Shown here one piece after another: positions 1,249 through 16,353 of a stretch of 16,353 bases of DNA. The position numbers and the translations under genes are program-made. Origin of the DNA: a virus (taxonomy: Duplodnaviria; Heunggongvirae; Uroviricota; Caudoviricetes); IMG/VR virus record IMGVR_UViG_2585427750_000025, positions 1 to 16,353 of that record; one strand, given 5' to 3'. Each line of letters begins with the position of its first letter. The stretch's first letter is position 1. Under the pieces are notes generated by a model. That model was not told where the DNA came from. It saw nothing but the letters and a program-made list of their open reading frames with translations, and searched no databases.

Positions 1249-1777
1249 ACGTAAACTTTTTCCGGTTGTTGTCGATAGCTCTATATCCCTCAACCGGAAA
1301 ATAATAATAGTAAAATGCTTAGCCCTGCTAATAATCGCCTAATCCAAACGCCTCATTCATGTTCTGGTACAGTCGCTCAAATGTACTTCAGATGCGCGGT
1401 TCGCTGATTTCCAGGACATTGTCGTCATTCAGTGACCTGTCCCGTGTATCACGGTCCTGCGAATTCATCAAGGAATGCATTGCGGAGTGAAGTATCGAGT
1501 CACGCCATATTTCGCTATCAGGATTCTGTGTGATGGTTACATCGCCCGGCTCAGGGCTGTTTAGTCATCAGCGCTTTCTGACAGTGCTGAGATTTCAACC
1601 TGTTGCAGTAAAAATGAGTAGATATAAGGCAAGTGTGCTGCCAAACCCATCTTTTACGGGGTGAAGGTAGATTTCGTTTGAAGGGTATCTGGTGTCCCCT
1701 GCAGACATCTACTTGAAGCGGCAGGGGATTGATTGGAATGGAGTTTTTTAGATGTGAGAAATATTTTACCCGCTATT

Positions 1778-1978
1778 TTACCCATTGGCGCGGCTTAAGA
1801 GCTTATTTTTGAATTCACAATGGTCACGATATAACCATCTTGCTCGCCCGTGGATAACTTTGGCTTTTGGCAGGTCGCCGGACTTAATCCGGTCATAGAT
1901 GAAGGTTTTACCGAAGCCAGTATCGGCCATGATGAATTTCAAATCAACCAGTGAATCAGGTTGTAGTTCGTGTTGCAT
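1778..1978 (-). CDS. AlpA/Xis-family excisionase or DNA-binding regulator, 66 aa
   Basis: Small basic protein with the LKFIxxxTGFxxxxIYxxIKxGxxP HTH signature of AlpA/Xis proteins; ATG at 1978 preceded by GGAGA; leftmost gene of the early-left operon. Confidence 0.6.
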   Translation of the reverse strand: MQHELQPDSLVDLKFIMADTGFGKTFIYDRIKSGDLPKAKVIHGRARWLYRDHCEFKNKLLSRANG

Positions 1979-2020
1979 GAGTGCTATCTCCGAATAGGGA
2001 ATCGAACCTGCAAATCAGGC

Positions 2021-2044
2021 AAGAAAAAGCCGCATTGATGCGGC
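2021..2044 (-). terminator. Putative rho-independent terminator between the accessory genes and xis
   Basis: Plus-strand stem gccgca (2029-2034) / tgcggc (2039-2044) with loop ttga; on the minus strand the stem is followed by TTTTTCTT (plus 2021-2028). Confidence 0.4.
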
Positions 2045-2101
2045 GATGGTAGGTCTGGATATCATTGAGCAATGAACAGGCCTCATCGAGTGTGAGGTGG
2101 G

Positions 2102-2446
2102 TTAGTCCTTGCGTAGCTCGCTGATTCTTCTGTAAGTCTCTGGTGCTTTGTTCCCATACGTCTTCATTTCAGACTTCAACAGAGCAACGAGTGAATCCCA
2201 TTCGTTGAGGATTCCTTTGAATGCCGGAACGCGCTTTGCAACCTTGTCGAATGAATCTCTGATTTCTGGAATCTGCTCAACAAGTGCAACGCATCGTCGG
2301 AAATCGGCTGCGTCATGTGGAGCACCGAAGCTATGACCATAGATATTCTTTTTCAGTCCACATGCGATTGAGGCAAGAGTTGCGCTACTGATGCCTACAT
2401 CGCCAGTCGATTGCAATTTCAAAACCTTCATAGCCAAATCTGACAT
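2102..2446 (-). CDS. Hypothetical phage protein, 114 aa
   Basis: Intact ORF, ATG at 2446 preceded by GGAG about 8 nt upstream; no family recognised. Confidence 0.5.
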   Translation of the reverse strand: MSDLAMKVLKLQSTGDVGISSATLASIACGLKKNIYGHSFGAPHDAADFRRCVALVEQIPEIRDSFDKVAKRVPAFKGILNEWDSLVALLKSEMKTYGNKAPETYRRISELRKD

Positions 2447-2526
2447 TTCTTGTCTCCATAAAACAAAACTCGCCGTAGCGAGTTCAGATAAAAGAAAACC
2501 ATCAATTGGTTAGGGTTTTTGTAATT

Positions 2527-2718
2527 CTACGAATTATGTTGTTTTTTAGCTTCAGCTTTCCATTCATCAAAGGCAGTGTCTTTGTTCATGGTGCTGATAT
2601 TGATCTTACGGTCAATATCATATACACGCCACTCACCGTTAGGCCTCTCTTCGCATCTAACTAAGTATGAATTGCCATTAATATCTATGCGTCTGTCTAT
2701 TTGCATGAACATTTTCAA
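2527..2718 (-). CDS. Hypothetical small protein, 63 aa (TTG start; alternative ATG at 2712)
   Basis: ORF begins with TTG at 2718, AGAGGA 8 nt upstream; AT-rich upstream region with a TATAAT-like hexamer. Confidence 0.4.
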   Translation of the reverse strand: MKMFMQIDRRIDINGNSYLVRCEERPNGEWRVYDIDRKINISTMNKDTAFDEWKAEAKKQHNS

Positions 2719-2781
2719 TTTTCGAATCCTCTTTAATATGCATTTTTTTTGCTATTTCAGTAGTTTACTATTGATGAGGCG

Positions 2782-2787
2782 TTATTA
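2782..2787 (-). promoter_or_regulatory. Candidate internal -10 element (TATAAT on minus strand) in AT-rich intergenic region
   Basis: Minus strand reads gtgtgTATAATaacg; only a weak -35 candidate at non-ideal spacing, so low confidence. Confidence 0.25.
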
Positions 2788-2831
2788 TACACACTTCATT
2801 AATGCAAGCATCTTTATGCTATGCTACTAAT

Positions 2832-3113
2832 TTAGCAATTGATATTCACCTTTATCGCGAACACCTTTACCGGTTTATCGCCGAAGTGGGGATGTGTGAT
2901 TGTCTTGATTTCATATCCGTCATACGGAACATCAATTCTGCGACTGAAGTCGTCGCGCTTCGGATATCCCTTTGTGATAATCAGGCGGTCATACTCCCGG
3001 AACATAATTCGCTTATTCCAGTAGTCATTACACAAGCGATACTCTTCCGTTTTCTCCCCGCGAATCATGGCATCGAAGTATTCACCTTTGACGGCAAGTT
3101 GCAGGTTAGCCAC
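2832..3113 (-). CDS. ASCH/DUF3850-like small protein, 93 aa
   Basis: N-terminal pattern (LQLAVKGEYFDAMIRGEKTEEYRLCND) resembles the ASCH-fold DUF3850 family common in phage accessory regions; assignment from recall only. Confidence 0.45.
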   Translation of the reverse strand: MANLQLAVKGEYFDAMIRGEKTEEYRLCNDYWNKRIMFREYDRLIITKGYPKRDDFSRRIDVPYDGYEIKTITHPHFGDKPVKVFAIKVNINC

Positions 3114-3393
3114 GACCTTCCTCCTTTGGCTTGTGAATTTGTATCGTCATGCCGCTTTGAGTGGTGACTACAATGACAGAACCAGGCTGAAGGCTGTTAA
3201 GATTGAATGCTTCGTAAAACGAATCCAATGCCAGTGCTTTTTTATTCTTTCGGTTCCACCAACGCCATCCCTTGCTACAGGCTACACTGACAATCCACTG
3301 TCCACTCCTGTAAGCCATATAAAACCAGATGAGCAAAACCTGAAGGAATGCTATCCAGTCAATGATCGTATATTTCGCGAAGGAGTCCATCAC
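3106..3393 (-). CDS. Hypothetical protein with N-terminal hydrophobic segment, 95 aa
   Basis: ATG at 3393 preceded by GGAGGTG (5 nt spacer); start overlaps the stop of the upstream Lar-like gene (ATGA); hydrophobic stretch IIDWIAFLQVLLIWFYMAY. Confidence 0.55.
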   Translation of the reverse strand: MMDSFAKYTIIDWIAFLQVLLIWFYMAYRSGQWIVSVACSKGWRWWNRKNKKALALDSFYEAFNLNSLQPGSVIVVTTQSGMTIQIHKPKEEGRG

Positions 3394-3686
3394 TTCACCT
3401 CCTGCGGAGTAGCCTTTACAAGCACTGGTGTAAATCCATCTTCATTAAGGTTATGAATATAGACTTCTGTTCTCCTGCGCTCTTCAACGTTTAATATTGT
3501 TTCTGGATCATAAACCCATACTTTCATTCGACTATTCCATGAAGAAATCGCTTCAGATTTAGTTCGTTTTTCTGGTCCTTGGGCACCACATTTGCATGAC
3601 ACATAGCACATTTTCCCTCTGATACTGAATGAGTATCCGATGTTAAGCACAGTGGAACCACAGAATGGGCAGCGATATAGATTCAT
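3390..3686 (-). CDS. Lar-family restriction-alleviation-like protein with C-terminal extension, 98 aa
   Basis: N-terminal zinc-ribbon pattern CPFCG ... CxC ... AIxxWNSR typical of the Lar family; AGGTGG RBS upstream of ATG at 3686. Confidence 0.55.
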   Translation of the reverse strand: MNLYRCPFCGSTVLNIGYSFSIRGKMCYVSCKCGAQGPEKRTKSEAISSWNSRMKVWVYDPETILNVEERRRTEVYIHNLNEDGFTPVLVKATPQEVK

Positions 3687-4303
3687 AAATCATCCACCTT
3701 AGGCGCAGCTGAGACAGCAACATTCCAGAACTCAGAAAACATATTGTATGCACCAGATAGATTGGAAGTGGCATACCCTCCAAGCTCACTTCTAATCTGA
3801 ACGGCTCTCATCATTTCCGGGGTTAACTCCTTCGGCACCATAACCCAACCATCCGGAGTTACCGGAGAGTTGCCGGGTTCTTTAATGTGCAAGCGAGGCT
3901 CACCATCTTTTGGCTCAGGCCACTGGCGCTCCATGTTGATCTTCAATTTATCTTCCATAGCAGCGGTAATTTCAGCATCGCTGATGCCAGCACGGCGCTG
4001 TGCATCCCACAACAGAAACTGCATATCAGCCCACTCGCTAAGATCGTCTGGTTCGGCTGCGGCTTCCAGTGCCTCTTTTGAGAGATGTTTCAGCGGACCA
4101 ATGGGGCCAACGCAGCCAAATGTGGAGTCAGACCATTTGGCATGCTCGTGGCGAATCTGTTCGCGTTCCAGTGATGCCAGTGCGATACGCAGGGCATCCA
4201 GGATATTCCCCTGGTAATCATCAAGCCCGAAAGGAAGCTCATCACGAACGCTTTCATAATCGTTGATAGCCTGCTGCAGCCATTCTCTTGTGATAGTGCT
4301 CAT
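3683..4303 (-). CDS. Hypothetical phage protein, 206 aa (possibly DUF550 / MazG-like N-terminal domain)
   Basis: Strong RBS AAGGAGAGG before ATG at 4303; ATGA overlap with upstream gene; domain assignment tentative. Confidence 0.5.
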   Translation of the reverse strand: MSTITREWLQQAINDYESVRDELPFGLDDYQGNILDALRIALASLEREQIRHEHAKWSDSTFGCVGPIGPLKHLSKEALEAAAEPDDLSEWADMQFLLWDAQRRAGISDAEITAAMEDKLKINMERQWPEPKDGEPRLHIKEPGNSPVTPDGWVMVPKELTPEMMRAVQIRSELGGYATSNLSGAYNMFSEFWNVAVSAAPKVDDL

Positions 4304-4926
4304 GATGCCTCTCCTTTACCTGCTTCGGTGACGTTTATTCCAGCGTTGTGCAGTGCCTCAAGAACCTGATGCTGCCTGTAAACCATTTCAGTGTGGTAAG
4401 GCTCGTCAAAATCGACGCGATGCAACATGCTATAGCATTGCGGAAGCACAACCTCCCGCAACTCCAGCTCAGCAATGCGCTTCTCTGCGGCTTCCAGCTT
4501 CTCGCGCATATCGTCAACGTACTCGACCAGAGAACCGCCAGCAGGAATTTCGCACTCCTCGACCAGTTGGAAGTAGATATCAGCTGCGGCCCGTGTGTTG
4601 CTATGCCTAGCGTCGCCCATCTCACCTTCACGAAGAGCATCGCGTTCGGCGGTAAGATTGGCTATTTTGCTGTCTTTGCCTTCCAGCTCAACGCGCAGCT
4701 TCCCTACCGTTAGCGCAATTTCCTCGTTCTCCTGGTCACGGCGTTTGATGTATTGCTGGTTTCTTTCCAGTTCATCCAACAATGCCAGCGCGATATCTGG
4801 CGAAAAGTGCTTCATAAAATCGTTAAGCGCATTAATTCGCTGATCGAAAGGCATTACAGGTGCTTCACCAGCAATTTTTGTTTTTTCAGCGATTTCACGA
4901 AGCTTTTGATAATCAATCTTGCTCAC
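4300..4926 (-). CDS. Ead/Ea22-like family protein, 208 aa (GTG start)
   Basis: N-terminus MSKIDYQKLREIAEK and coiled-coil-like middle resemble lambda Ea22-like proteins; GTG at 4926 preceded by AAGGAGG (6 nt spacer). Confidence 0.6.
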   Translation of the reverse strand: MSKIDYQKLREIAEKTKIAGEAPVMPFDQRINALNDFMKHFSPDIALALLDELERNQQYIKRRDQENEEIALTVGKLRVELEGKDSKIANLTAERDALREGEMGDARHSNTRAAADIYFQLVEECEIPAGGSLVEYVDDMREKLEAAEKRIAELELREVVLPQCYSMLHRVDFDEPYHTEMVYRQHQVLEALHNAGINVTEAGKGEAS

Positions 4927-5060
4927 TGGTTGCCTCCTTTGCGAAGCTGGTTGGCGAACAAACGTACACTAGACGCTTCACTGCGTAGAAACTTAACGGC
5001 ATAATCAAAACCACCTCGTTCTGCGTCGTCTGCTCCGTTGTCGAGGTTATCTGCGTACAT
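4923..5060 (-). CDS. Small hypothetical ORF, 45 aa (internal ATG of the 92-aa track ORF)
   Basis: ATG at 5060 lies 14 nt inside the end of the upstream gene; its TGA stop overlaps the GTG start of the Ea22-like gene (GTGA). Fits the coupling pattern of the operon but is short. Confidence 0.3.
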   Translation of the reverse strand: MYADNLDNGADDAERGGFDYAVKFLRSEASSVRLFANQLRKGGNQ

Positions 5061-5406
5061 CTCTACCCCCCTGCGCCCGTACTTCAGCCAGGAAAGCATC
5101 GGTGGCTGGTGTTTCAACACGGATGCTGTCGCGCAAGATGAAAAATGCATCAAGCATTCCAGTCTCCGGCACTTCATCCTGATGCTTCTCATACGCATCA
5201 AGAGCCTTCATCATCTCAGGTCCGAATGGTTGAGGGTGCGCAGCCTTCAGCCCCGCATTCTCCGCCGCCAGCGCCGCGCACTTGGCCTCCGCTTCAGCAA
5301 ATTTACGCACCAGATATTCAGCGTTTGTTTCGTTAACCTTTAAATCACTTGGGATGCATTTACCTTTCAGAAAACCATCCATCTCAATTAGTGTCATTTG
5401 TTTCAT
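5047..5406 (-). CDS. Hypothetical phage protein, 119 aa
   Basis: Intact ORF, ATG at 5406 overlapping the stop of the upstream 54-aa ORF (ATGA). Confidence 0.5.
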
Positions 5407-5567
5407 TTCTTCCCACTCCGCAACATCGCATTCAGATATTTGTTGTCATTAACAGAACCGAAACTATTTCTCTTAAGCAATTCCTCTCTCGATGGCATTG
5501 GCTTTACGCGTTGGCGAATAATCATTTCTGCCGGAAGAATGCCGGGATTGTATGCAAGTCCTCTCAT
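5403..5567 (-). CDS. Small hypothetical ORF, 54 aa (below the ORF-track length cutoff)
   Basis: Hand translation: [54 protein letters not shown]; GGAGAG RBS upstream; ATGA overlaps at both ends exactly fill the gap between flanking genes. Confidence 0.35.
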
Positions 5568-5854
5568 GATTTACTCTCCACGAACTGGTCAACAGCCATG
5601 CTAAGTGACACACCTAAAGTCTCGATATGTTGCTGAATATCCTGTAGCGTCTGCGCCTGAGATAACAGGATTTCACGGTTGCATAACTCTTTAACCAGAT
5701 GCTCAAACTTGCTGTAATAACCGATACGGCTTAGTGTTTCTTTCCCTGCATTCTCGCCTTCTTTGATAATTCCTCTTTCGCTAAGAATCAGATCGTGTTT
5801 TGTTCCGGTAATAACGTATTTTCCGAGGTTGATGTTTAGCTTCATTGTTTTCAT
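5564..5854 (-). CDS. Hypothetical phage protein, 96 aa (start moved to internal ATG)
   Basis: ATG at 5854 (MKTMKLNIN...) is preceded by GAGGAA with 6-nt spacer and lies 11 nt after the stop of the upstream gene; the longer 147-aa track ORF would overlap that gene. Confidence 0.5.
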
Positions 5855-5864
5855 TGTTAATTCC

Positions 5865-6161
5865 TCAGTCATTACTGATAGCGCCATAGCGTGAGCGGTA
5901 ATTACGCAGGCGCGGGTCGATATATTCAGGGAAGTGGGTATATGTGGCTTTGCGGAATGGTCGGATTGATGTCTGGTAAATTCGCTCGCGTTCTTCTTTC
6001 TCTGCAAGCCATATGCAGTGGCGAAACTCCTTTTCCTCTTTCGTTTCCTGCGGTAGAGACATTATCCGATCGTAGTTTTTTCTGAATTTATCCAGCACCT
6101 CCGATACGGAATTGCCGGAACAGCGGCGCGCGTCGTCCGCACCATATAGAGGCGCTGGCAT
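5865..6161 (-). CDS. Hypothetical phage protein, 98 aa
   Basis: ATG at 6161 preceded by AGGAGA (5 nt spacer), 16 nt downstream of the exonuclease stop. Confidence 0.5.
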   Translation of the reverse strand: MPAPLYGADDARRCSGNSVSEVLDKFRKNYDRIMSLPQETKEEKEFRHCIWLAEKEERERIYQTSIRPFRKATYTHFPEYIDPRLRNYRSRYGAISND

Positions 6162-6177
6162 GGTTTTCTCCTGTTGA

Positions 6178-6726
6178 TTATTTAGCTAACTTTTTCCAGA
6201 TCGCTGAAACGTATTTGGCTTGGTGGATTGCATCATCAAGCGCGTTGTGGCGAGTTCCTTTGAATGGCATATCTCGCTTAGGGTCTAATCCTATTGCCTT
6301 CCCAAGTTCGACGATTGTTCTTACGTCGCGGTCATTCCACCACTGCCACGGAACTGGCTGCCCTGTCAGCGAATAAGTGTTGCGGAGAATAACGCAGTCA
6401 AATGATGCTCCATTCCCCCAAACCTGAACGAGTTTGTGGTTGGCGTTCTTTATGATGAATTCAGATAACCATGAAAGAGCCGTTGAAAGCTCTTGAGTGT
6501 TGCTGGTTAGCGATTTTCTGGCTTCTTCACTCTGTTCCATCCACCATAAAATCGTTGAAGCGTCAGGACGCGCCCGATATCGCATTGATGACTCAAGCGA
6601 GATATTTACCGAGAACTCTTCTCCTGTTTCTCCGGTATTCGGGTCAAAGAATACCGCCCCAATAGAAATAACTGGTGCGTATGGCCCGTTGCCCATTGTT
6701 TCAAGGTCAACCATCAAGTGATTCAT
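6178..6726 (-). CDS. DnaQ-like (DEDDh) 3'-5' exonuclease, 182 aa
   Basis: Exo motif I (MVDLETMG) and Exo III-like H-x4-D (HNALDDAIH) with intervening acidic residues; AAGGA RBS; immediately downstream of ssb. Confidence 0.7.
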   Translation of the reverse strand: MNHLMVDLETMGNGPYAPVISIGAVFFDPNTGETGEEFSVNISLESSMRYRARPDASTILWWMEQSEEARKSLTSNTQELSTALSWLSEFIIKNANHKLVQVWGNGASFDCVILRNTYSLTGQPVPWQWWNDRDVRTIVELGKAIGLDPKRDMPFKGTRHNALDDAIHQAKYVSAIWKKLAK

Positions 6727-6734
6727 GTAAGTCC

Positions 6735-7250
6735 TTAAATTGCGTAAATAGCGTGACGAGGGAAAGGGAGAGTTACTGGTGCAAAGGGGATATCGTCGTC
6801 AAAATCCATAGGTGGTTCGCTGTGATTTACCTGCTTCTGAGACTGCTGTTTTTGTTGCTGACCGTTATTTCGCTGAGGTGAAGACTGTTCATTGCCTCCT
6901 TGCTTGCCACCAAGCATTTGCATGGTTCCACCAACGCCCACGATAACTTCGGTAGTGAACCGATCCTGTCCACTTTGATCCTGCCATTTTCTTGTCCGCA
7001 ATTTGCCTTCAAGATAAACCTCTGAGCCTTTTCGCAGATATTCGCTGGCAATTTCTGCCAGTTTCCCGCTCATTACCACTCGGTGCCACTCCGTCTGCTC
7101 CTTTTGCTCTCCAGTTTGCTTATCACGCCATTGTTCTGACGTAGCAACTGTAAGGTTTGCAAATGCCGTTCCTGATGGTGAATATCTGATTTCTGGATCA
7201 TGCCCAAGGCGACCAATAATGATCACCTTATTTACGCCTCTGCTTGCCAT
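6735..7250 (-). CDS. ssb: Single-stranded DNA-binding protein (phage SSB), 171 aa, with a 15-residue extension after the DDDIPF motif
   Basis: N-terminal OB-fold region closely resembles E. coli SSB ([10 protein letters not shown]..., [15 protein letters not shown]); Gly/Gln-rich linker; [10 protein letters not shown] motif present but followed by [15 protein letters not shown] before the stop. Confidence 0.85.
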
Positions 7251-7958
7251 TTATGCCGCCTGTTTTAGTTCATTAACTCTGATGTTCATTACCTGAACGC
7301 ATTTAGCCTGCGCCTCCTCGTTGCCAGCCATTAATTGCCAGTCACGCTGATAACGCTCGATGAGTTTTTTCTTGTCAGTTTCTGTTGACGCATAATCGCT
7401 GAAGTCTTTCAGGATTTGTTCGCAGTCAACCGATGGAGATTTCTGGTTGGTATTTTCTGGTGATGGTTTGTTATCTGATGCTGGGATTGCCCATCCCGGC
7501 AGCGATGGAGGGAGCCAGTAAAATCCTGTTCCATCCTTCAGTTTTGCCCTGTGCCACCCCTGCTTTTTATCGAGAGATGTTTGTGCGAAACCTTCCTCAA
7601 GGTTATACAGATACCGACCGATTCCCCACTGAACGGCAGCGCGCTTCATTGCACCGGAACGACCACCTTTGACGGCTTCTACCTGCGTGTTTTCAGCAGC
7701 ATCCCATTTGGTTACCCATTCGGAATCAATCTTTATTGATATGCCGCATTCAACGCCGCCGTTGTTGGGAATATCGCGGTATTCATTGCGCCATCCTGCT
7801 TTGCCGCAAACATCGTCCAGGCGTTTCATGATTGCCCGGTTCGTGACATAAGCCAGCACCATAGCCCACACTTTGCCATCGCGTGTTTTACCGCTTTGCT
7901 GTATTCGCCATTCGATATCTTCAGGGCTGAATGGCTCATCGAATTTATTCAAATCCAT
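7251..7958 (-). CDS. Single-strand annealing protein, Rad52/Sak-like (tentative family), 235 aa
   Basis: In the bet/erf position directly upstream of ssb (stop TAA abuts the ssb ATG); N-terminal region resembles Rad52/22-family annealing proteins; GAGGTG RBS before ATG at 7958. Confidence 0.5.
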   Translation of the reverse strand: MDLNKFDEPFSPEDIEWRIQQSGKTRDGKVWAMVLAYVTNRAIMKRLDDVCGKAGWRNEYRDIPNNGGVECGISIKIDSEWVTKWDAAENTQVEAVKGGRSGAMKRAAVQWGIGRYLYNLEEGFAQTSLDKKQGWHRAKLKDGTGFYWLPPSLPGWAIPASDNKPSPENTNQKSPSVDCEQILKDFSDYASTETDKKKLIERYQRDWQLMAGNEEAQAKCVQVMNIRVNELKQAA

Positions 7959-8057
7959 AATTCACCTCAGAATGGACACGGCCCAAGGAAATAACGCTGA
8001 TTTAATACTTCGACTCGGGACAAATTAAGGCATACCCGCATTCCTTCGCGGTCACCA

Positions 8058-8216
8058 TTATGGCGATACCAGAGAGCTTTCTGCGTGTACATGCGTCTCT
8101 GTAACTTGCTCTCCTTCACTGTGGTTGCAAGTGACATGAATATCTCCTTCGTTACCGATTAATTCTTTCATCTGACGAATGAATTCTTCGTCTGACCAGT
8201 TATCTGTAAAACTCAT
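8058..8216 (-). CDS. Small hypothetical protein, 52 aa, in the kil position
   Basis: ATG at 8216 overlaps the CIII-like stop (ATGA); sits between cIII and the recombination genes as kil does in lambda; no sequence similarity to lambda Kil recognised. Confidence 0.35.
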   Translation of the reverse strand: MSFTDNWSDEEFIRQMKELIGNEGDIHVTCNHSEGEQVTETHVHAESSLVSP

Positions 8217-8383
8217 GGACGGCCTTGTTGTTTCAAAATATCCCAAAGCTTTTCGAGCAAACTTTTCATTCTTGGTTGTTTAAAGTCTGCTCCGGTTAAA
8301 ATATTTTTTCGTGAATGCTGTACCGATAAAATCGGGTTGAAAGGGCGAACCAATGCCGCCCCTGCAATAGCGAACTGTTGCAT
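8213..8383 (-). CDS. cIII: CIII-like protein (candidate FtsH/HflB inhibitor), 56 aa
   Basis: Internal ATG at 8383 with AAGGAG RBS (6 nt spacer); product MQQFAIAGAAL...LLEKLWDILKQQGRP resembles lambda CIII (MQYAIAG ... LLERI...ILNQPG) and occupies the cIII position. Confidence 0.6.
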   Translation of the reverse strand: MQQFAIAGAALVRPFNPILSVQHSRKNILTGADFKQPRMKSLLEKLWDILKQQGRP

Positions 8384-8445
8384 AGGATGCTCCTTCTGTT
8401 TGAATGCATAACGAAAACGCCTCGAGTGAAGCGTTATTGGTATGC

Positions 8446-8473
8446 ATATAAAAAGGCCCTCACACTGGAGGGC
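8446..8473 (-). terminator. Putative rho-independent terminator upstream of cIII in the pL operon
   Basis: Stem gccctc (8456-8461) / gagggc (8468-8473), loop acactg; followed on the minus strand by TTTTTATA. Confidence 0.4.
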
Positions 8474-8591
8474 AAAGAAGATTTCCAATAATCAGAACAA
8501 GTCGGCTCCTGTTTAGTTACGAGCGACATTGCTCCGTGTATTCACTCGTTGGAATGAATACACAGTGCAGTGTTTATTCTGTTGTTTATGC

Positions 8592-8617
8592 CAAAAATAA
8601 AGGCCGACTATTCGGCC
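8592..8617 (-). terminator. Putative rho-independent terminator (tL1-like position) overlapping the stop codon of the post-N gene
   Basis: Stem ggccga (8602-8607) / tcggcc (8612-8617), loop ctat; followed on the minus strand by TTTATTTTTG; the TAG stop of the 107-aa gene lies inside the hairpin. Confidence 0.45.
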
Positions 8618-8931
8618 TTATCTACATTCCTGAACCAAACGCAGATCGGACCGTCTTCTGTATCGTGAATCGAACCGACAAACCATCCTTCTCCATCTGG
8701 CATGCTTGGCTCCCATCCACTGATGTTTTGATTCCCATCTTCAAAATACGCGTCAATTACCGTTTGATTGTTGTCGTTTTCCATTTCAACAATTGATGAT
8801 TCAATGCCATGCTGCTTGCAGAAAGATCTGAACTCATCAGCTGAAATTACCTCTCTATCCCCAAACAGGTTGGCGTATTCTGGGTGCGTCCAGTAGCCAT
8901 CCTCGCTTCGCTCTACTACTAATGCTTCCAT
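8608..8931 (-). CDS. Highly acidic hypothetical protein, 107 aa, immediately downstream of N
   Basis: ATG at 8931 with GAGGTGAG RBS, 8 nt after the N stop; roughly 24 Asp/Glu against 6 Lys/Arg by manual count. Confidence 0.55.
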   Translation of the reverse strand: MEALVVERSEDGYWTHPEYANLFGDREVISADEFRSFCKQHGIESSIVEMENDNNQTVIDAYFEDGNQNISGWEPSMPDGEGWFVGSIHDTEDGPICVWFRNVDKAE

Positions 8932-8939
8932 ATCTCACC

Positions 8940-9266
8940 TCAAATAAGTGGTTTGCTGCCTAATTTCATTTTCTGGCGACCAACACAAGTCACACCCATT
9001 TCACTGCGTGGCTTGCTGTACCATGTGCGCTGATTCTTGCGCTCAATACGTTGCAGGTTGCTTTCAATCTGTTCGTGGTATTCAGCCAGCGCCGTAAGGT
9101 CTATCGGATTCAGTGCGCTTTCTACTCGTGATTTCGGTTTGCGATTCAGCGAGAGAATAGGGCGGTTAACTGGCTTTGCGCTTACCCCAACCAACAGGGG
9201 ATTTGCTGCTTTCCATTGAGCCTGTTTTTCTGCGCGACGTTCGCGGCGGCGTGTTTGTGCATCCAT
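8940..9266 (-). CDS. N: Antitermination protein N (lambda-type), 108 aa
   Basis: Product from internal ATG at 9266 begins MDAQTRRRERRAEKQAQWKAANPLLVGVSAKPVNRPILSLNRKPKSRVESALNPIDLT, matching lambda N including the arginine-rich boxB-binding motif. Confidence 0.9.
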   Translation of the reverse strand: MDAQTRRRERRAEKQAQWKAANPLLVGVSAKPVNRPILSLNRKPKSRVESALNPIDLTALAEYHEQIESNLQRIERKNQRTWYSKPRSEMGVTCVGRQKMKLGSKPLI

Positions 9267-9438
9267 CTGGATTCTCCTGTCAGTTAGCTTTGGTGGTGTG
9301 GTAGGTGGGAGACCCATTTCGACCTGCTTCGGCCGACTTCAATTCGGCAATAGTTCCGCAGGCCTCGCCGCTTTACGTGCGACATATTCCCATCCATGAA
9401 CCCTTCACCACACCCCAAAGCCTTCTGCTTTGAATGCT

Positions 9439-9469
9439 GCCCTTCTTCAGGGCTTAATTTTTAAGAGCA
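9439..9469 (-). promoter_or_regulatory. nutL site (boxA GCTCTTAA and boxB GCCCTGAAGAAGGGC)
   Basis: Minus strand reads GCTCTTAAAAATTAAGCCCTGAAGAAGGGCAGC, the lambda nutL sequence; boxB is a 5-bp stem with GAAGA loop. Confidence 0.85.
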
Positions 9470-9508
9470 TCACCTTCATGGTGGTCAGTGCGTCCTGCTG
9501 ATGGCTTA

Positions 9509-9581
9509 AAATTACAAGAAAGATTGTATGTTGTAAACAAGAAATATTGTAAAAAGGGGCGTGAAAAACAAACTCCATTGT
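9509..9581 (-). promoter_or_regulatory. pL promoter with three 434-type operators (OL, ACAA-N6-TTGT)
   Basis: 14-bp operators at 9514-9527, 9537-9550 and 9568-9581; minus-strand -35 TTTACA (9532-9537), 17-bp spacer, -10 TAATTT (9509-9514); lambda-like leader ATCAGCAGGACGCACTGACC starts near 9502. Confidence 0.65.
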
Positions 9582-9630
9582 TTTTAAATGAAAAATAGTT
9601 TGTTTTTGGTTATCGAGATTGAGGTGGGGA

Positions 9631-10983
<1,353 letters not shown>

Positions 10984-10991
10984 GACATTTC

Positions 10992-11023
10992 CGCTCTTAC
11001 ACATCCCAGCCCTGAAAAAGGGC
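10992..11023 (+). promoter_or_regulatory. nutR site (boxA CGCTCTTAC and boxB GCCCTGAAAAAGGGC)
   Basis: Lambda nutR boxA at 10992-11000 and boxB at 11009-11023; the downstream leader up to the cII ATG is near-identical to lambda (tR1 region). Confidence 0.9.
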
Positions 11024-11102
11024 ATCAAATTAAACCACACCTATGGTGTATGCATTTATTTGCATACATTCAATCAATTGTTATCTAAGGAAATACTTAC
11101 AT

Positions 11103-11381
11103 ATGCAACTTACAAGTACTCGCAAGAAAGCGAATGCAATTACAAGCAACATCCTAAATCGAATTGCTGTACGTGGTCAGCGAAAGGTTGCTGATGCATT
11201 AGGGATCAATGAATCGCAAATTTCGCGATGGAAAGACAGCTTTATCCCAAAGATGGCCATGCTTCTGGCTGTGCTGGAGTGGGGTGTTGAAGACGAGGAA
11301 TTAGCGGAGCTGGCAAAGAAAGTAGCCATGGTGCTGACAAAAGAAAAGCCTCAAGACTGCGGCAACAGTTTTGAGGCCTGA
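11103..11381 (+). CDS. cII: CII-like transcriptional activator, 92 aa
   Basis: ATG at 11103 in the lambda cII context (TAAGGAAATACTTACATATG); product shares the HTH and SQISRWK ... MLLAVLEWGV core with lambda CII but diverges at both ends. Confidence 0.75.
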   Translation: MQLTSTRKKANAITSNILNRIAVRGQRKVADALGINESQISRWKDSFIPKMAMLLAVLEWGVEDEELAELAKKVAMVLTKEKPQDCGNSFEA

Positions 11382-11415
11382 TGTAGAAAGACTGGATCAA
11401 TCCACAGGAGTAATT

Positions 11416-11577
11416 ATGACAAAACGTCGTAAGAAATACCAGGAAAAAGAAGAGATTCGACACCCTGATTCACCTGAGGGATTAGTGGTAGCCGCAGCAA
11501 ATAACAGGGCGTTCGCAGAGCGCCTTGTTGGTGTTTACAGACTAGCCAAAGCAGGAGTGAAACATGGGCGTCGTTAA
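11416..11577 (+). CDS. Small basic ORF in the lambda O start context, 53 aa (separate gene or frameshifted initiator N-terminus)
   Basis: ATG at 11416 preceded by CACAGGAGTAATT, almost the same context as the lambda O start; overlaps the initiator ORF by 14 nt in another frame. Confidence 0.3.
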   Translation: MTKRRKKYQEKEEIRHPDSPEGLVVAAANNRAFAERLVGVYRLAKAGVKHGRR

Positions 11578-12454
11578 GTTAGCTGATTACAGGCATAACC
11601 CTGTAAAACATCAGGAGGCATCCAGTATGGGGTATGTCTCTATACACCGCCAGTTTATGGACAGCAGGCTCTATAAGGACTCTCAGGCAGTACATCTTTG
11701 GCTTCACTTAATCCTCAAGGCTAATCACGAATCTACTGTCGTCAATACGGATATCGGTCCGATAACTGTTGATCGCGGTCAGATGATAACTGGACGCCCG
11801 TCGCTGGTCAGAGAAACATTCATCCCCGACAACAAAGTTCGGAGCTTATTACGGACTTTTGAGTCGAAAGGGATGCTTAATATTTCCTCGATGGGGAAGA
11901 AATTTAGCCTGTTTACAATCGTTAAATATGACGATTTTCAGGCAAAAAATTGTCCAACGGTTGTCCAACGGTTGTCCAACGCAAACACCAGTAATGGCGC
12001 GGCTCTCAGCGGAGATTGTCCAACGGTTGTCCAACGGTTGTCCATAAACAATAATATAAATAATATCTCTAATACTGACGTATTAGAGAGTGCCACAGCA
12101 GACAAAAAGTCTGACAAGAAAAAACCTTCCGTTAGCTGTCAGGATGTTGTCGATGCTTACCACGAAATCCTTCCTGAAGCGCCAAGAATCCGCGCACTGA
12201 ATGACAAGCGTAAAAACCAGATCCGAACGTTCTGGCGCAAAGCCGGAGTGATAACCCGCCAGCTTGACGGGCATGGGTTCACGATGCAGGACTGGAGAAA
12301 TTATTTGAGCTACGTAGGAGAAAATTGCCGATGGATGTTCGAAGAGCGCCCAAACCATCAACGCGGAACTGTCTGGCACAAAAAGGGATTTGATTTCCTG
12401 CTTAACGATAATACCTACCTGAAAGTTCGTGAGGGTGAACACGATGACCGATAA
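11564..12454 (+). CDS. Replication initiator (O-like), 296 aa, with origin iterons inside the gene; alternative start at 11627
   Basis: Occupies the O position after cII; N-terminal DNA-binding-like domain, low-complexity linker encoded by the iterons, C-terminal domain; stop overlaps the helicase start by 11 nt. Confidence 0.6.
   Translation: MGVVKLADYRHNPVKHQEASSMGYVSIHRQFMDSRLYKDSQAVHLWLHLILKANHESTVVNTDIGPITVDRGQMITGRPSLVRETFIPDNKVRSLLRTFESKGMLNISSMGKKFSLFTIVKYDDFQAKNCPTVVQRLSNANTSNGAALSGDCPTVVQRLSINNNINNISNTDVLESATADKKSDKKKPSVSCQDVVDAYHEILPEAPRIRALNDKRKNQIRTFWRKAGVITRQLDGHGFTMQDWRNYLSYVGENCRWMFEERPNHQRGTVWHKKGFDFLLNDNTYLKVREGEHDDR
11950..12048 (+). repeat. Origin iterons: six copies of TTGTCCAACGG in two triplets (11950-11982 and 12016-12048)
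   Basis: Direct 11-bp repeats (third copy of each set slightly degenerate) separated by about 33 bp, inside the initiator gene; encode the repeated peptide CPTVVQRLS. Confidence 0.7.
12049..12090 (+). promoter_or_regulatory. AT-rich stretch next to the iterons (candidate DNA unwinding element)
   Basis: aaacaataatataaataatatctctaatactgacgtatta immediately right of the iterons, as in lambda ori. Confidence 0.5.
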
Positions 12455-13880
12455 TTTTTATGCGCCGCCCCATAGCATCGAGGCAGAGCAGGCGGTGATT
12501 GGTGGATTGCTTCTGGATGATGACAGCAGTGAGCGCGTCCAGAAAGTTCTGGCGATGCTGAAGCCTGATTCATTTTACAGCCGACCACACAAAATCCTTT
12601 TCGAAGAAATAACCAGAATGCACCGGGAGCAAAAGCCAGTAGATGGCCTGACGCTTTTCGATGAACTGGATCGCAAATCGTTAACGGTGTCTGTTGGCGG
12701 TTTTGCTTATATCGCTGAGATCGCAAAGAACACGCCAAGCGCCGCAAACATCGTTGCCTATGCAATGCAGGTTCGCGAAACCGCAATGGAACGCTACGCC
12801 ATCAACCGCATGACTGAAGCGACGGAATTGCTCTATTCCCGCAACGGAATGACTGCAACGCAGAAGTACGAAGCTATTCAGGCGATTTTCACGCAACTGA
12901 CAGACCATGCAAAAACCGGATCGCGTCGCGGCCTTCGCTCATTTGGTGAGGTAATGGAAGACTGGGTTAGCGACCTTGAGAAGCGATTTGACCCGTCAGG
13001 CGAACAACGAGGAATGAGCACAGGGATCCCATCGCTGGACAGGATGCTGTCACCGAAAGGTCTGGTGAAAGGCTCTCTGTTTGTCATTGGCGCTCGCCCT
13101 AAGATGGGGAAAACGACGCTATACAGCCAGATGGCAATCAACTGCGCAGTGCATGAGAAAAAGCCCGCTCTGATGTTCAGCCTTGAAATGCCCGGTGACC
13201 AGATACTGGAAAAACTGGTAGGACAGAAGTCAGGTGTTAACCCGAATATTTTTTACCTTCCGGCGACAAATGACGCTGATGACGGCTATCAGGGTGATTA
13301 CGATGGTGACTTCAACAGGGCGATCGAAACAGCCAATCGCTTGAGTGAAATCGACATGCTTTACATCGACGACACGCCGGGATTATCTCTGGCTCAAATC
13401 GTCAGCGAAAGCCGTCGAATCAAGCGAGAAAAAGGATGTGTTGGCATGATTCTGGTCGATTACCTGACACTAATGACCGCTGAGAAGGCCGATCGCAACG
13501 ACCTTGCTTACGGCATGATCACCAAAGGACTGAAGAACCTTGCCAAAGAGCTTGATTGCGTTGTTGTGCTTCTGACGCAGCTTAACCGCGCACTGGAAAG
13601 CCGAACCAATAAACGCCCATTACCAAGTGACTCACGAGATACAGGGCAGATTGAACAGGATTGCGATTATTGGGTTGGGATCCATCGTGAAGGCGCTTTT
13701 GATGACAGTGTTCCACCTGGTGAAACCGAACTAATCCTTCGTCTCAATCGTCATGGCAATACCGGCACGGTGTATTGCATTCAGGCAAATGGCGCTATTT
13801 ATGACACAGACCAACAGTCTGCTGAAATGCGCCGACGTGAACGCGAGGAACCGCAGTCCAAGAAGAAAGGAGGATTCTGA
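12444..13880 (+). CDS. DnaB-family replicative DNA helicase (P22 gene 12-like), 478 aa
   Basis: N-terminal DnaB-like domain (HSIEAEQAVIGGLLLD), Walker A GARPKMGKTT, Walker B-like MILVDYLTLM; ATG at 12444 with GAGGGTG RBS. Confidence 0.85.
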   Translation: MTDNFYAPPHSIEAEQAVIGGLLLDDDSSERVQKVLAMLKPDSFYSRPHKILFEEITRMHREQKPVDGLTLFDELDRKSLTVSVGGFAYIAEIAKNTPSAANIVAYAMQVRETAMERYAINRMTEATELLYSRNGMTATQKYEAIQAIFTQLTDHAKTGSRRGLRSFGEVMEDWVSDLEKRFDPSGEQRGMSTGIPSLDRMLSPKGLVKGSLFVIGARPKMGKTTLYSQMAINCAVHEKKPALMFSLEMPGDQILEKLVGQKSGVNPNIFYLPATNDADDGYQGDYDGDFNRAIETANRLSEIDMLYIDDTPGLSLAQIVSESRRIKREKGCVGMILVDYLTLMTAEKADRNDLAYGMITKGLKNLAKELDCVVVLLTQLNRALESRTNKRPLPSDSRDTGQIEQDCDYWVGIHREGAFDDSVPPGETELILRLNRHGNTGTVYCIQANGAIYDTDQQSAEMRRREREEPQSKKKGGF

Positions 13881-13907
13881 TGACCATCTACATCACTGAG
13901 CTTGTAA

Positions 13908-13940
13908 CAGGCCTGCTGGTAATCGCAGGCCTTTTTATTT
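13908..13940 (+). terminator. Rho-independent terminator downstream of the helicase gene (tR2-like position)
   Basis: Perfect 8-bp stem aggcctgc (13909-13916) / gcaggcct (13925-13932), 8-nt loop, followed by TTTTTATTT. Confidence 0.7.
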
Positions 13941-13955
13941 GGGGGAGGGTAAATC

Positions 13956-14162
13956 GTGGTTGAGTTTATGCTCGTCGCACTCAAATTCGTTGGCGTTGGA
14001 TGGATTCTTCTGACGTTTTTTATTTTTCTGCATAGCTACATTCGCCTTGTGAATGACGGTAAAGATCCATGGTATACGTTGTTTGGCGCTGCATTTGTCT
14101 GGGTGATTATCGGTGTTATGCCTGTCGCTGTAGCAAAAATGGCGTGGCGTTTTGTGAGTTGA
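13956..14162 (+). CDS. Small predicted membrane protein, 68 aa (GTG start; alternative ATG at 13968)
   Basis: Two hydrophobic segments; GGAGGG RBS 6 nt upstream of GTG at 13956; first gene after the terminator. Confidence 0.45.
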   Translation: MVEFMLVALKFVGVGWILLTFFIFLHSYIRLVNDGKDPWYTLFGAAFVWVIIGVMPVAVAKMAWRFVS

Positions 14163-14179
14163 ACTGAGGGTAAGTATCG

Positions 14180-14446
14180 ATGGACGAATCAAGAAAGCAG
14201 TTTGAAGAATGGTTTGAAAATTACACCGGATGTGATCCTAAAAATAAAATATACGCCAATATGGTTGAGATGTATTGGCAAGCGTGGCAGGCATCGCGAG
14301 CAGCTATCGAGATTGAGTGTCCTGGAAAAAGAGAGCGTGAGGCATTTTCTACCGATTTCGAGGATGGGGTCACATTTGGTTATAACGACGCAATTAGTGA
14401 ATGCGAAGGACGGATTCGCGCTGCTGGAGTCAAAGTGAAGGGGTGA
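14180..14446 (+). CDS. Hypothetical nin-region protein, paralog A, 88 aa
   Basis: Begins MDESRKQFEE and shares WQASRAAIE and IRAAG motifs with paralog B; GAGGG RBS 9 nt upstream. Confidence 0.5.
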   Translation: MDESRKQFEEWFENYTGCDPKNKIYANMVEMYWQAWQASRAAIEIECPGKREREAFSTDFEDGVTFGYNDAISECEGRIRAAGVKVKG

Positions 14447-14448
14447 GC

Positions 14449-14634
14449 ATGAGTCGACGAAGTAGCTTTTTGGGGTTTGTAATATTCCTGTTCTGCACTG
14501 GTTACATCGTAATCTGGTCAATTTCGAACATTGACCGTGGCGGGGAATATCTCATTGTAATGTTCTTTCCTTTGTTTCTTGGGTGGTACGCCGCAAGGTT
14601 GCTGGAAGAATGGGGTTACAGGCATAAAAAATAA
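14449..14634 (+). CDS. Small predicted membrane protein, 61 aa (internal ATG of the 77-aa track ORF)
   Basis: ATG at 14449, 2 nt after the paralog A stop, preceded by GAAGGGG; two hydrophobic segments and a basic C-terminus. Confidence 0.4.
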   Translation: MSRRSSFLGFVIFLFCTGYIVIWSISNIDRGGEYLIVMFFPLFLGWYAARLLEEWGYRHKK

Positions 14635-14693
14635 AGGAGTGTTCAGTGAAGCAAACCCTTTTTTATTGGATTAAGAGCGAGTGGTAAGTACCG

Positions 14694-14876
14694 ATGGTAA
14701 ATGCATTTATTTGTAGTTTATTTCTTGTCGCGATTTTTCATGGATTCCTTCTGATGATGAGTTTTGTTCTCTGGAATAATGGATATCGCATATTGGGAGT
14801 AGGTTTTGTTTTACGGTTTTCAGTTGTCTGCGCGTTGCTACCGATAATTATGGCGACTATCAAATATTATTGGTAA
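14694..14876 (+). CDS. Small predicted membrane protein, 60 aa
   Basis: Two hydrophobic segments; start lies in the junction motif GGTAAGTACCGATGG also found before paralog A; weak RBS. Confidence 0.35.
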   Translation: MVNAFICSLFLVAIFHGFLLMMSFVLWNNGYRILGVGFVLRFSVVCALLPIIMATIKYYW

Positions 14877-14903
14877 CCCAAAAAATCATCGATGGAGAGT
14901 GAT

Positions 14904-15260
14904 ATGGACGAATCAAGAAAGCAGTTTGAGGAATACGTTGCCAAAAAATTGAGATTACCATTCGAGATGATAACCGAGGCAAGAAATGGTGATAGGTACT
15001 TCGCATTTTCAAGCATGGATATTCGTCACTCCTTAAATGAGTGGTGGACTTTATGGCAGGCATCGCGAGCAGCTATTGAACTGGATATCGACTGGCCAGA
15101 ATCGAATGACGACTTTTGGAAAGATGGTGAAGAAGGTGCTTATGCGATGGGTTATGAGGATGGGCGTGACAAAACGGTAATTGCAGTAATGAAAGCTATC
15201 AGAGCCGCTGGAATTAAAGAGAAGAATTTCGATGAAGCAAACAATCTTCCTCCGAAGTAA
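14904..15260 (+). CDS. Hypothetical nin-region protein, paralog B, 118 aa (start at second ATG)
   Basis: ATG at 14904 preceded by GGAGAG; first 26 nt identical to paralog A; the upstream in-frame ATG at 14892 lacks an RBS. Confidence 0.5.
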   Translation: MDESRKQFEEYVAKKLRLPFEMITEARNGDRYFAFSSMDIRHSLNEWWTLWQASRAAIELDIDWPESNDDFWKDGEEGAYAMGYEDGRDKTVIAVMKAIRAAGIKEKNFDEANNLPPK

Positions 15261-15642
15261 GCAACAACAGCAAGCCGCAATAAATGCCATCCTCGCAACA
15301 CCACTCGATAAAGACAAGCCAGTCACCATCCGCATTACTGACTACAAGCGCAACCTTGACCAGAACGCAAAATTTCACGCGATGCTGGCGGATATCGCTC
15401 GTCAGGTTCAATGGTGCGGCAAATGGTTAAAACCGGAACAATGGAAGGTTTTGTTGATCAGCGGTCATGCAGTGGCAACAAAACAGGAAGCTGATGTTTT
15501 GCCCGGGCTTGAAGGCGAATACGTCAACATTCGCGAAAGTAGCGCGCAGATGAGTGTGAAGCGTATGGCAAGTCTGATTGAGTACACGACAGCATGGGCT
15601 ATTGGTCAGGGTGTCAGATTTACCGACAGGAGGTACGAATGA
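15232..15642 (+). CDS. ninB: NinB (Orf-family recombination mediator), 136 aa
   Basis: Similar to lambda NinB over its length (MKxxxFxxRS ... AINAI ... RNLDQN ... QVxWxGxWL); overlaps paralog B by 29 nt. Confidence 0.8.
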
Positions 15643-15815
15643 GACGACAGCGACGAAGTTTCACCGACATCATCTGCGAAAACTGCAAATACCTTCCAAC
15701 GAAACGCTCCAGAAATAAACGCAAGCCAATCCCAAAAGAATCTGACGTAAAAACCTTCAACTACACGGCTCACCTGTGGGATATCCGGTGGCTAAGACAT
15801 CGTGCGAGGAAATGA
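15639..15815 (+). CDS. ninE: NinE-like small arginine-rich protein, 58 aa
   Basis: ATG at 15639 overlaps the ninB stop (ATGA); product [58 protein letters not shown] resembles the lambda nin-region small basic protein; NinE versus NinD naming is from memory. Confidence 0.55.
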
Positions 15816-15817
15816 CA

Positions 15818-16177
15818 ATGGATTATTCACAGTTAAGTGATTTTGAAATTAACGTGGCGGTATTCGAAGCCATTCATAACGGATCGCCGGATTACAAAGA
15901 AGGTGAGAATGGCGATATGGTGTTTGTCTCATTTGAGGGAGACATTGTAAACGGAGACGCAGTTGAAGTAGAAGTTGAGCGCGGATCCTTTAACCCATGC
16001 GCAAACCCAGCAGACTCATGGCCGATTATTGAAAAATACAGGATTAGCATTATCAATCTCGATGAAGACGAGTGGGGTGCACGCGGTGTGGCCTACTGTA
16101 AATCTAAGCGAGCTATACATGAAAATCCCCTTCGCGCCGCCATGATTGTCTTTCTCATGATGCAGAGAATCCAATAA
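15818..16177 (+). CDS. Hypothetical nin-region protein, 119 aa, acidic (start moved to ATG at 15818)
   Basis: AGGA RBS about 7 nt upstream of ATG at 15818 (MDYSQLSDFEIN...); sits between the NinE-like and NinF genes. Confidence 0.5.
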   Translation: MDYSQLSDFEINVAVFEAIHNGSPDYKEGENGDMVFVSFEGDIVNGDAVEVEVERGSFNPCANPADSWPIIEKYRISIINLDEDEWGARGVAYCKSKRAIHENPLRAAMIVFLMMQRIQ

Positions 16178-16353
16178 TGCTTAGCCCATCCCAATCCCTT
16201 CAATACCAGAAAGAAAGCGTCGAGCGAGCTTTAACGTGCGCTAACTGCGGTCAGAAGCTGCATGTGCTGGAAGTTCACGTGTGTGAGCACTGCTGTGCAG
16301 AACTGATGAGCGATCCGAATAGCTCAATGTACGAGGAAGAAGACGATGAGTGA
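16177..16353 (+). CDS. ninF: NinF-like small Cys-rich protein, 58 aa (below the ORF-track cutoff)
   Basis: Hand translation MLSPSQSLQYQKESVERALTCANCGQKLHVLEVHVCEHCCAELMSDPNSSMYEEEDDE with TGA as the last three bases of the window; matches the lambda NinF pattern; ATG overlaps the upstream TAA (TAATG). Confidence 0.6.
   Translation: MLSPSQSLQYQKESVERALTCANCGQKLHVLEVHVCEHCCAELMSDPNSSMYEEEDDE

Follow-up and report, generated by a model that had tools for sequence, protein, structure and literature searches.

Short DNA-identical blocks at the joints of a small-gene mosaic in the nin region of a lambdoid prophage, probably sites of homologous exchange

The DNA considered here is a stretch of 16,353 nucleotides (IMG/VR virus record IMGVR_UViG_2585427750_000025, positions 1 to 16,353), which in its full length we call the window. 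The prophage on it encodes a CI-like repressor, a DnaB-like helicase (12429-13880), NinB (15232-15642) and NinX. Our subject is a pair of small related genes, paralog A and paralog B, in its lambdoid nin region, more precisely in the variable cassette interval 13880-15260 that lies between the terminator tR2 and ninB. The gene order there is helicase, a ninA-like open reading frame (ORF) with tR2, ORF68, paralog A, a 61-aa ORF, a 60-aa ORF, paralog B and ninB. The two paralogs share short blocks of identical DNA, and our main finding is that mosaic breakpoints among related phages fall in these blocks and in a few similar ones around them, which are probably joints of homologous recombination. 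The features that matter for this are the following.

14169-14183, + strand: junction motif copy 1, GGTAAGTATCGATGG; 3' flank of ORF68, ribosome-binding region and ATGG of paralog A
14180-14446, + strand: paralog A, 88 aa, allele N1-C1; matches phrog_343 over residues 1-87 (E = 5.4e-29)
14180-14205, + strand: block 1, copy A, 26 nt, encoding MDESRKQFE; an exact repeat, with match ends clustered at 14180 and 14210
14285-14307, + strand: block 2, copy A, 23 nt for WQASRAA(I); within the gene, where the N segment is joined to the C segment
14414-14453, + strand: block 3, copy A, IRAAGVKVKG and stop codon, then ribosome-binding site and start of the next ORF; 21 long-match ends
14642-14656, + strand: apparent remnant of the ninB 5' end, TTCAGTGAAGCAAAC; repeat D4, with nine long-match ends at 14656
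14683-14697, + strand: junction motif copy 2, GGTAAGTACCGATGG; apparently a family-gene initiation region, now heading the 60-aa membrane ORF
14904-15260, + strand: paralog B, 118 aa, allele N2-C2; matches phrog_343 over residues 1-114 (E = 5.2e-31)
14904-14929, + strand: block 1, copy B; seen as an exact repeat and in the match-end counts
15054-15076, + strand: block 2, copy B; an exact repeat
15198-15224, + strand: block 3, copy B, IRAAGIKEK; seen in the codon view, with 15 long-match ends at 15198-15209
15228-15242, + strand: ninB start junction, TTCGATGAAGCAAAC; repeat D4, with 26 long-match ends at 15228-15241

Blocks 1 and 2 are direct repeats, in the same orientation. An exact-match search and a repeat finder place block 1 (ATGGACGAATCAAGAAAGCAGTTTGA, 26 nt) at 14180-14205 and 14904-14929, and block 2 (TGGCAGGCATCGCGAGCAGCTAT, 23 nt) at 14285-14307 and 15054-15076; if one mismatch is allowed, the repeats reach 31 and 26 nt, respectively. 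A preliminary description of this DNA had already reported the shared 26-nt 5' end, which the exact search confirms, and the 23-nt internal block, which does start at 14285 in paralog A but in paralog B starts at 15054, 3 bases away from the reported 15051. It had further stated that the sequence between and after the blocks has diverged. Indeed, outside the blocks A and B share 45% identity in aligned DNA, and their proteins are 35% identical. Where the two proteins have the same residue, the codon is also the same in 13 of 13 cases within the blocks versus 10 of 22 outside (Fisher p = 0.0009, the blocks having been chosen post hoc for this comparison). The repeat finder returned a further direct repeat that the preliminary description did not list, namely D4 at 14642-14656 and 15228-15242, which brackets a cassette consisting of the 60-aa ORF and paralog B.

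Both paralogs significantly match the profile of phrog_343, an uncharacterised family, over most of their length. For the comparison with other members we used about 150 loci in total: 134 from IMG/VR (with A and B as queries), 10 from other species, and stretches from named phages and E. coli. The genes of the family fall into discrete types, with at least six types for the N segment (block 1 to block 2) and four for the C segment (after block 2). When N1-4 are crossed with C1-4, the IMG/VR loci contain 14 of the 16 possible combinations and E. coli SJC33 adds N3-C3 as the fifteenth, so that N4-C4 is the only one unseen in the loci examined. Among the named phages, Sf6 gp48 is N2-C3, HK022 gp59 is N3-C1 and mEp213_059 is N2-C2. 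A segment of a given type remains 96-99% identical in DNA when its partner differs, while segments of different types are 47-70% identical, and the joint of every N x C combination is the same 23-nt block 2. The exact block 1 is present in 60 of 72 distinct gene sequences and the exact block 2 in 62 of 72, the remaining variants being mostly nonsynonymous singletons; at least five unrelated upstream sequences precede block 1 across the loci. The identity of the blocks holds almost without exception across the family in the enterobacterial lambdoid pool and is not a peculiarity of the A/B pair.

The positions of the breakpoints were obtained by blastn of window positions 13700-15700 against all loci, with matches of at least 100 nt and at least 90% identity, which yielded 93 distinct sequences with 191 internal match ends. 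Nine short blocks, which occupy 28% of the interval, contain 172 of these ends. Another 15 lie at 15198-15209, in block 3 of paralog B, which brings the number in short conserved blocks to 187. The four blocks and two motif copies of the preliminary description cover about 14% of the interval and take in 91 of these 191 ends. That description had taken the blocks for traces of homology-driven module exchange and had named blocks without breakpoint association as the outcome that would speak against it; we checked this across related phages, and the mosaic breakpoints do coincide with the blocks. Its placing of the blocks at gene boundaries is right for the motif and block 1, but not for block 2, which sits inside a gene, between two exchangeable segments. 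Block 3 of paralog A is the joint between the family gene and a downstream neighbour that varies, and the start of ninB is the right boundary of the whole variable region.

Two further observations concern the joints themselves. In four loci, the overlap between adjacent matches on the subject corresponds exactly to the shared block: 31 nt in block 1 (locus L068), 26 nt in block 2 (L117), 33 nt in block 3 (L015), and 10 nt, TGAAGCAAAC, at the ninB start (L040; this is the repeat at 14642-14656 of the window). Moreover, both deletions that can be predicted from the window's own direct repeats occur in other phages. The block 1 product, in which 13879-14210 is joined to 14904-15700, is present in about 12 loci, and the block 2 product, in which the stretch to 14310 is joined to 15054 onwards to give an N1-C2 gene, in about 10.

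The 15-nt junction motif GGTAAGTAYCGATGG, that is the pattern GGTAAGTA(T/C)CGATGG, occurs at 14169-14183 and 14683-14697. Both copies had been reported, with positions that were one base off, and two matches were seen in none of 200 shuffles. In the fetched loci, GGTAAGTAYCG corresponds to the 3' flank of ORF68 plus the ribosome-binding region, and the subsequent ATGG opens the family gene; there are 70 such instances, which include some contigs fetched twice. In the window it is likewise the 3' flank of ORF68 that bears copy 1. The family-gene leader has a 'VP|MDES' form that the C variant at 14683 matches exactly, and in 19 loci the motif stands ahead of the 60-aa membrane ORF, which is unrelated. 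Copy 2 would thus be a captured family-gene initiation region, joined to another cassette right after ATGG. The shorter TCGATGG, also said to recur at 14888-14894, did not hold up. Its sites are 14177, 14889, 5489 and 11888, four copies are at chance level (at least four in 34 of 200 shuffles), and the homologous leader 5' of paralog B in other phages reads GTGATGGAGAG. Therefore there is no shared motif at that place, and TCGATGG, not being homologous in other contexts, was rejected as a third copy of the junction motif. Paralog B itself has an alternative in-frame ATG at 14892, and GGAGAG lies 7 nt ahead of 14904.

In our opinion, the blocks are likely to be joints at which homologous recombination takes place within 23-31 nt of perfect identity. 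In the family gene, two highly divergent segments, each existing in discrete types, alternate with three short conserved blocks: block 1 comprises the start codon and MDESRKQFE, block 2 WQASRAAI, and block 3 IRAAG(I/V)K.K together with the stop codon and the next ribosome-binding site. Being DNA-identical throughout the enterobacterial lambdoid pool, the blocks provide stretches of 23-31 nt with perfect homology amid DNA that is otherwise unalignable. Recombination in them would reassort N segments, C segments and neighbouring cassettes, and repeated exchange would at the same time keep the blocks identical. The two copies in this genome are direct repeats through which the DNA between them can be lost. 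The exchange might depend on the RecA of the host or proceed through phage single-strand annealing proteins, for which the Rad52-family protein of this prophage is a candidate catalyst. Shen and Huang reportedly found in 1986 that RecA-dependent exchange in E. coli has a minimal efficient pairing length of about 23-27 bp. Mosaics are reported to be formed by Rad52-like phage recombinases where homology is short and diverged, with a minimum of about 30 bp for Red-beta (PMC3945230). Conserved short flanking sequences have been proposed as sites of exchange in lambdoid phages by Clark et al. 2001, as cited in PMC2327257, and appear in the same role in what PMC3233612 says of them. The repeats, the mosaic, the places of the joints, the missing RNA signal and the recombinase genes are shown by the sequences; from these we infer that the recombination is homologous and that exchange homogenises the blocks, and the enzyme responsible may be among the candidates named. 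The relevant genes of the prophage are these.

6178-6726: exonuclease gene, by the SSB and recombinase genes (Pfam, E = 2e-73)
6735-7250: SSB gene, adjoining the recombinase gene (Pfam, E = 2e-38)
7251-7958, - strand: Rad52/22-family single-strand annealing recombinase (Pfam Rad52_Rad22, E = 5e-26)

Four other explanations have to be weighed, each of which we find weaker than homologous recombination at the blocks. MDESRKQFE and WQASRAAI are conserved in protein even in distant relatives, and they fall in predicted helices of a low-confidence AlphaFold2 model (9-sequence alignment, mean pLDDT 55.6, with only the N-terminal helices, which include blocks 1 and 2, at 70-79). One may hence suppose that the blocks are only conserved coding sequence, maintained by purifying selection on these residues, and that recombination is uninvolved. 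However, selection on residues leaves synonymous sites free, and distant relatives do vary them: those from Erwinia, Pantoea, Buttiauxella, Pluralibacter and Pseudocitrobacter retain WQASRAAI with other codons (TCT/TCA/TCC, CGC/AGA, GCC/GCG, CAA). The residues are therefore selected, and the identity of the DNA is a matter of shared descent or exchange and not of a function at nucleotide level. In the pool considered here, the blocks are exact in 60 and 62 of the 72 sequences with mostly nonsynonymous variants, and 15 of 16 N x C combinations at 96-99% within-type identity require exchange between segments. As the sole explanation coding constraint is already contradicted, and we believe it to be very unlikely. 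It is also unlikely, if not to that degree, that the identical stretches are functional nucleotide elements under selection at the RNA level, such as an initiation region or low-structure leader, a regulatory RNA or a protein-binding site. The preliminary description had allowed for a shared translational or RNA element, and in a trivial sense there is one, since the 15-nt motif holds the ribosome-binding region and start codon and stands before two different ORFs. The relatives from Erwinia, Pseudocitrobacter and Pluralibacter, whose block 2 differs synonymously, share the first 18 nt of block 1 exactly. Structure prediction around the shared 5' ends, which that description had recommended, gave folding no better than shuffled sequence for five stretches of 81 nt at the blocks and the motif (z = 0.6, 0.9, -0.3 and 1.2, with none below -0.3). 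An open initiation region would behave in this way. A structured RNA element we rejected on the z-scores of -0.3 to 1.2 and the want of a credible match in Rfam, where the only match is chance-level and on the opposite strand (E = 0.13, 19.6 bits vs a gathering score of 86). Selection on RNA also has to face an internal block 2 that is synonymously variable in distant relatives, at least four different leaders ahead of block 1, and a clustering of breakpoints for which it does not account.

Illegitimate, randomly placed recombination, after which selection retains the intact genes, is the favoured model for many phage mosaics without conserved boundary sequences (PMC3233612; PMC2327257), and under it the joints would only appear conserved. 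At this locus, though, the same joint is found at nucleotide resolution in all combinations, 10-33 nt of shared identity span every joint, and random joins within a gene would rarely preserve both the reading frame and the motif, so that we regard this model as highly improbable here. There is finally the thought, natural for two homologous genes in direct orientation 724 bp apart, that A and B are a local tandem duplication which diverged in place, gene conversion having kept short patches identical. This we find hardly credible at all, and it is already contradicted. Each copy is 97-100% identical to single-copy alleles elsewhere and 45% identical to the other copy outside the blocks, and the blocks are family-wide rather than specific to the pair. 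L015-like phages match the window from 13700 to 14452 at 98%, L059-like phages from 14424 to 15700 at 99%, and the two matches overlap at 14424-14452, in block 3. Since the window can be assembled from such a left part and such a right part overlapping in block 3, the pair is best read as two alleles juxtaposed, probably by one crossover. The arrangement is rare, at least 80% of 13880-15300 being covered in only 2 of 5426 complete E. coli genomes (matching complete E. coli genomes number 2001), again unlike what local duplication would suggest; it is found in the independent assemblies L003 and L004, and a different tandem pair is present in SJC33.

Certain points weigh against homologous recombination at the blocks, or at least against its strength. 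All evidence for it is comparative. The loci were gathered with peptides of A and B, so the type frequencies are biased, and many loci are related, so the counts of match ends are not counts of independent events. Five of the nine blocks that hold the 172 ends were delimited from the same matches that were then counted, whereas those of the preliminary description had been fixed beforehand. Blocks of 23-26 nt are at or below the efficient minimum of Red-beta (about 30 bp), hence exchange should be rare per infection. The 18 nt at the start of block 1 that three distant relatives share leave room for some nucleotide-level selection on the initiation region.

How does this compare with known systems? 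The boundary sequences (bsq) of lambdoid phages, described for HK620 (Clark et al. 2001) and in the annotation of Sf6, are equivalent to the linker sequences of the modular theory of phage evolution. Our blocks resemble them in being short DNA conserved among phages with dissimilar flanks (exact in 60 and 62 of 72 sequences, with segments of different types at 47-70%), and in that mosaic breakpoints coincide with them (187 of 191 ends, with adjacent matches overlapping by exactly the block). Boundary sequences are sited where modules meet and are proposed sites of homologous recombination (PMC2327257, PMC3233612), and the left edge of the interval at 13880-13960 is itself bsq6 of Sf6. For the ninA/tR2 stretch, the Sf6 homologue carries the annotations 'bsq6; boundary sequence' and 'tR2', and HK620 has ninA and tR2 there; as a boundary sequence, this stretch limits the variable nin cassettes on the left. 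The 15-nt motif with block 1, block 3 and the ninB start lie between genes, while block 2 is intragenic, between segments. There are differences too. The blocks are not among the bsq features annotated for this region in Sf6 or HK620: in Sf6 only bsq6 is annotated in the region, and the HK620 stretch examined has no bsq feature and no gene of the family. Unlike a bsq, block 2 parts two protein segments, not genes, and block 1 is the first 26 nt of a coding sequence, not an intergenic linker.

The relaxed recombination by Rad52-like proteins (Martinsohn et al. 2008; De Paepe et al. 2014) has been seen by experiment to produce lambdoid mosaics, mainly with Red-beta, Erf or RecT-type proteins (PMC3945230). 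This prophage is alike in encoding a Rad52-family recombinase, SSB, exonuclease and NinB. Those studies dealt with homologies of hundreds of bp at 67-96% identity, whereas here we have 23-31 nt of perfect identity, known from sequence comparison. A shufflon or other invertase system, or a diversity-generating retroelement, is a poor parallel, the blocks being direct repeats; no invertase or reverse transcriptase was found among the window ORFs scanned, which are part of all its ORFs. The case belongs with the boundary-sequence mosaicism already known, of which the region's left edge is an annotated example. What is new, beyond the records checked, is a joint inside a very small gene that parts two exchangeable segments, and a nearly complete matrix of alleles.

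How lambdoid mosaics come about has long been debated, the choices being homologous exchange at short conserved boundary sequences and random illegitimate joining plus selection. For the homologous boundary-sequence model this locus offers natural data of unusual clarity: 15 of 16 combinations share one 23-nt joint, matches overlap with single-base precision, and the deletion products of the window's own repeats exist elsewhere. It also provides a simple experimental handle on exchange, although its practical value is modest. The mosaic explains the confusing annotation and clustering of small nin-region genes, and it indicates that exchange can work inside a very small gene. One may go further and suppose that the family is a deliberately modular protein under diversifying selection (e.g. 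for anti-defence, exclusion or host targeting), in which independent N and C modules set the specificity and the blocks are retained partly for reshuffling among co-infecting phages and resident prophages. If true, this would be a natural cassette-exchange system within a protein of 88-118 residues; in our opinion it is unlikely.

As to the identity of the family, A and B gave no match in Pfam (local Pfam-A, even at E = 0.1), NCBIfam or PADLOC, a PDB sequence search returned nothing, and no publication dealing with the family or with its segmental allele structure was found. A precomputed Pfam entry, PF26207, is attached to every listed homologue of A in a large protein database. RefSeq labels a protein identical in type to B as 'phiTE_015 family protein'. 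One phage record calls a member 'similar to P22 EaD', and the window itself encodes at 4300-4926 (- strand) an Ead/Ea22-like protein that ends in ...VLEALHNAGINVTEAG, loosely like the C-terminal IRAAGIKVKE block of the family. A link to Ead/Ea22 was nevertheless rejected: profile comparison gave a probability of 1.5%, with a resemblance of just 17 residues at the C-terminus.

The remaining genes of the interval and its right flank are as follows.

13880-13957, + strand: ninA-like ORF, 26 aa (phrog_5907); contains tR2, with a hairpin at 13909-13932 in a terminator scan; 25 long-match ends
13956-14162, + strand: ORF68, small membrane-like protein (phrog_1165, E = 1.6e-37)
14449-14634, + strand: 61-aa ORF, predicted two-helix membrane protein, from the ORF list; a movable cassette
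14694-14876, + strand: 60-aa ORF, predicted membrane protein; a cassette co-travelling with paralog B
15232-15642, + strand: ninB, recombination mediator of the Orf family (Pfam NinB, E = 1.1e-55)

Homologues of ORF68 are HK022 gp58 and mEp213_058. DUF7301 was considered as its identity and rejected: the RefSeq DUF7301 gene of E. coli ML775 apparently is a different cassette in the same position, a distinction drawn from the positions. RefSeq leaves the DNA between the DUF7301 gene and the family gene unannotated in the homologous part of E. coli O103 ML775. The 61-aa and 60-aa ORFs have no family match in Pfam, PHROG, NCBIfam or PADLOC. Their order is not fixed. In locus L125 (IMG/VR UViG 651053021, about 2250-3480), the 60-aa ORF and an N2-type family gene come ahead of the 61-aa ORF, which is followed by ninB, and the same short junctions flank the cassettes in that order and in the order of the window.

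At 14647-14688 there is a 13-codon ORF (GTG AAG CAA ACC ..., MKQTLFYWIKSEW*) that repeats MKQTIF, with which NinB begins. It appears to be what remains of a ninB 5' end at the point where the 60-aa ORF and paralog B came in as a cassette. At the other end of this cassette, paralog B overlaps ninB by 29 nt (15232-15260), and the tail that follows ...KNFD comes from the 5' region of ninB, translated in a different frame. Other phages have NNLPPK or NIHASQRSNQK as the tail, or stop directly after NFD or NFR. These variants appear to track the ninB allele, which changes just past ATGAAGCAAAC.

In phage H-19B (AF034975.3, locus L149), an unannotated family gene at 900-968 of the locus reads MDESRKQFEEYVAKKLRLPFEI and then stops; the gene is a pseudogene with a frameshift, unless the record contains an old sequencing error. 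Near-identical enterobacterial alleles, N3-C1, N2-C3 and N2-C2, were met in metagenome-assembled genomes labelled Cellvibrionaceae (L137), Bacillota (L143) and Collinsella (L144), respectively; contamination or mis-binning seems likelier here than that these are true hosts. The family gene of L137 forms an in-frame fusion with a cysteine-rich ORF upstream. Finally, window positions 1-1248 hold a complete gene for a LacY-type sugar/proton symporter (Pfam E = 1.3e-193), to the left of the early-left genes of the prophage; the junction between prophage and host therefore lies between about 1250 and 3400.

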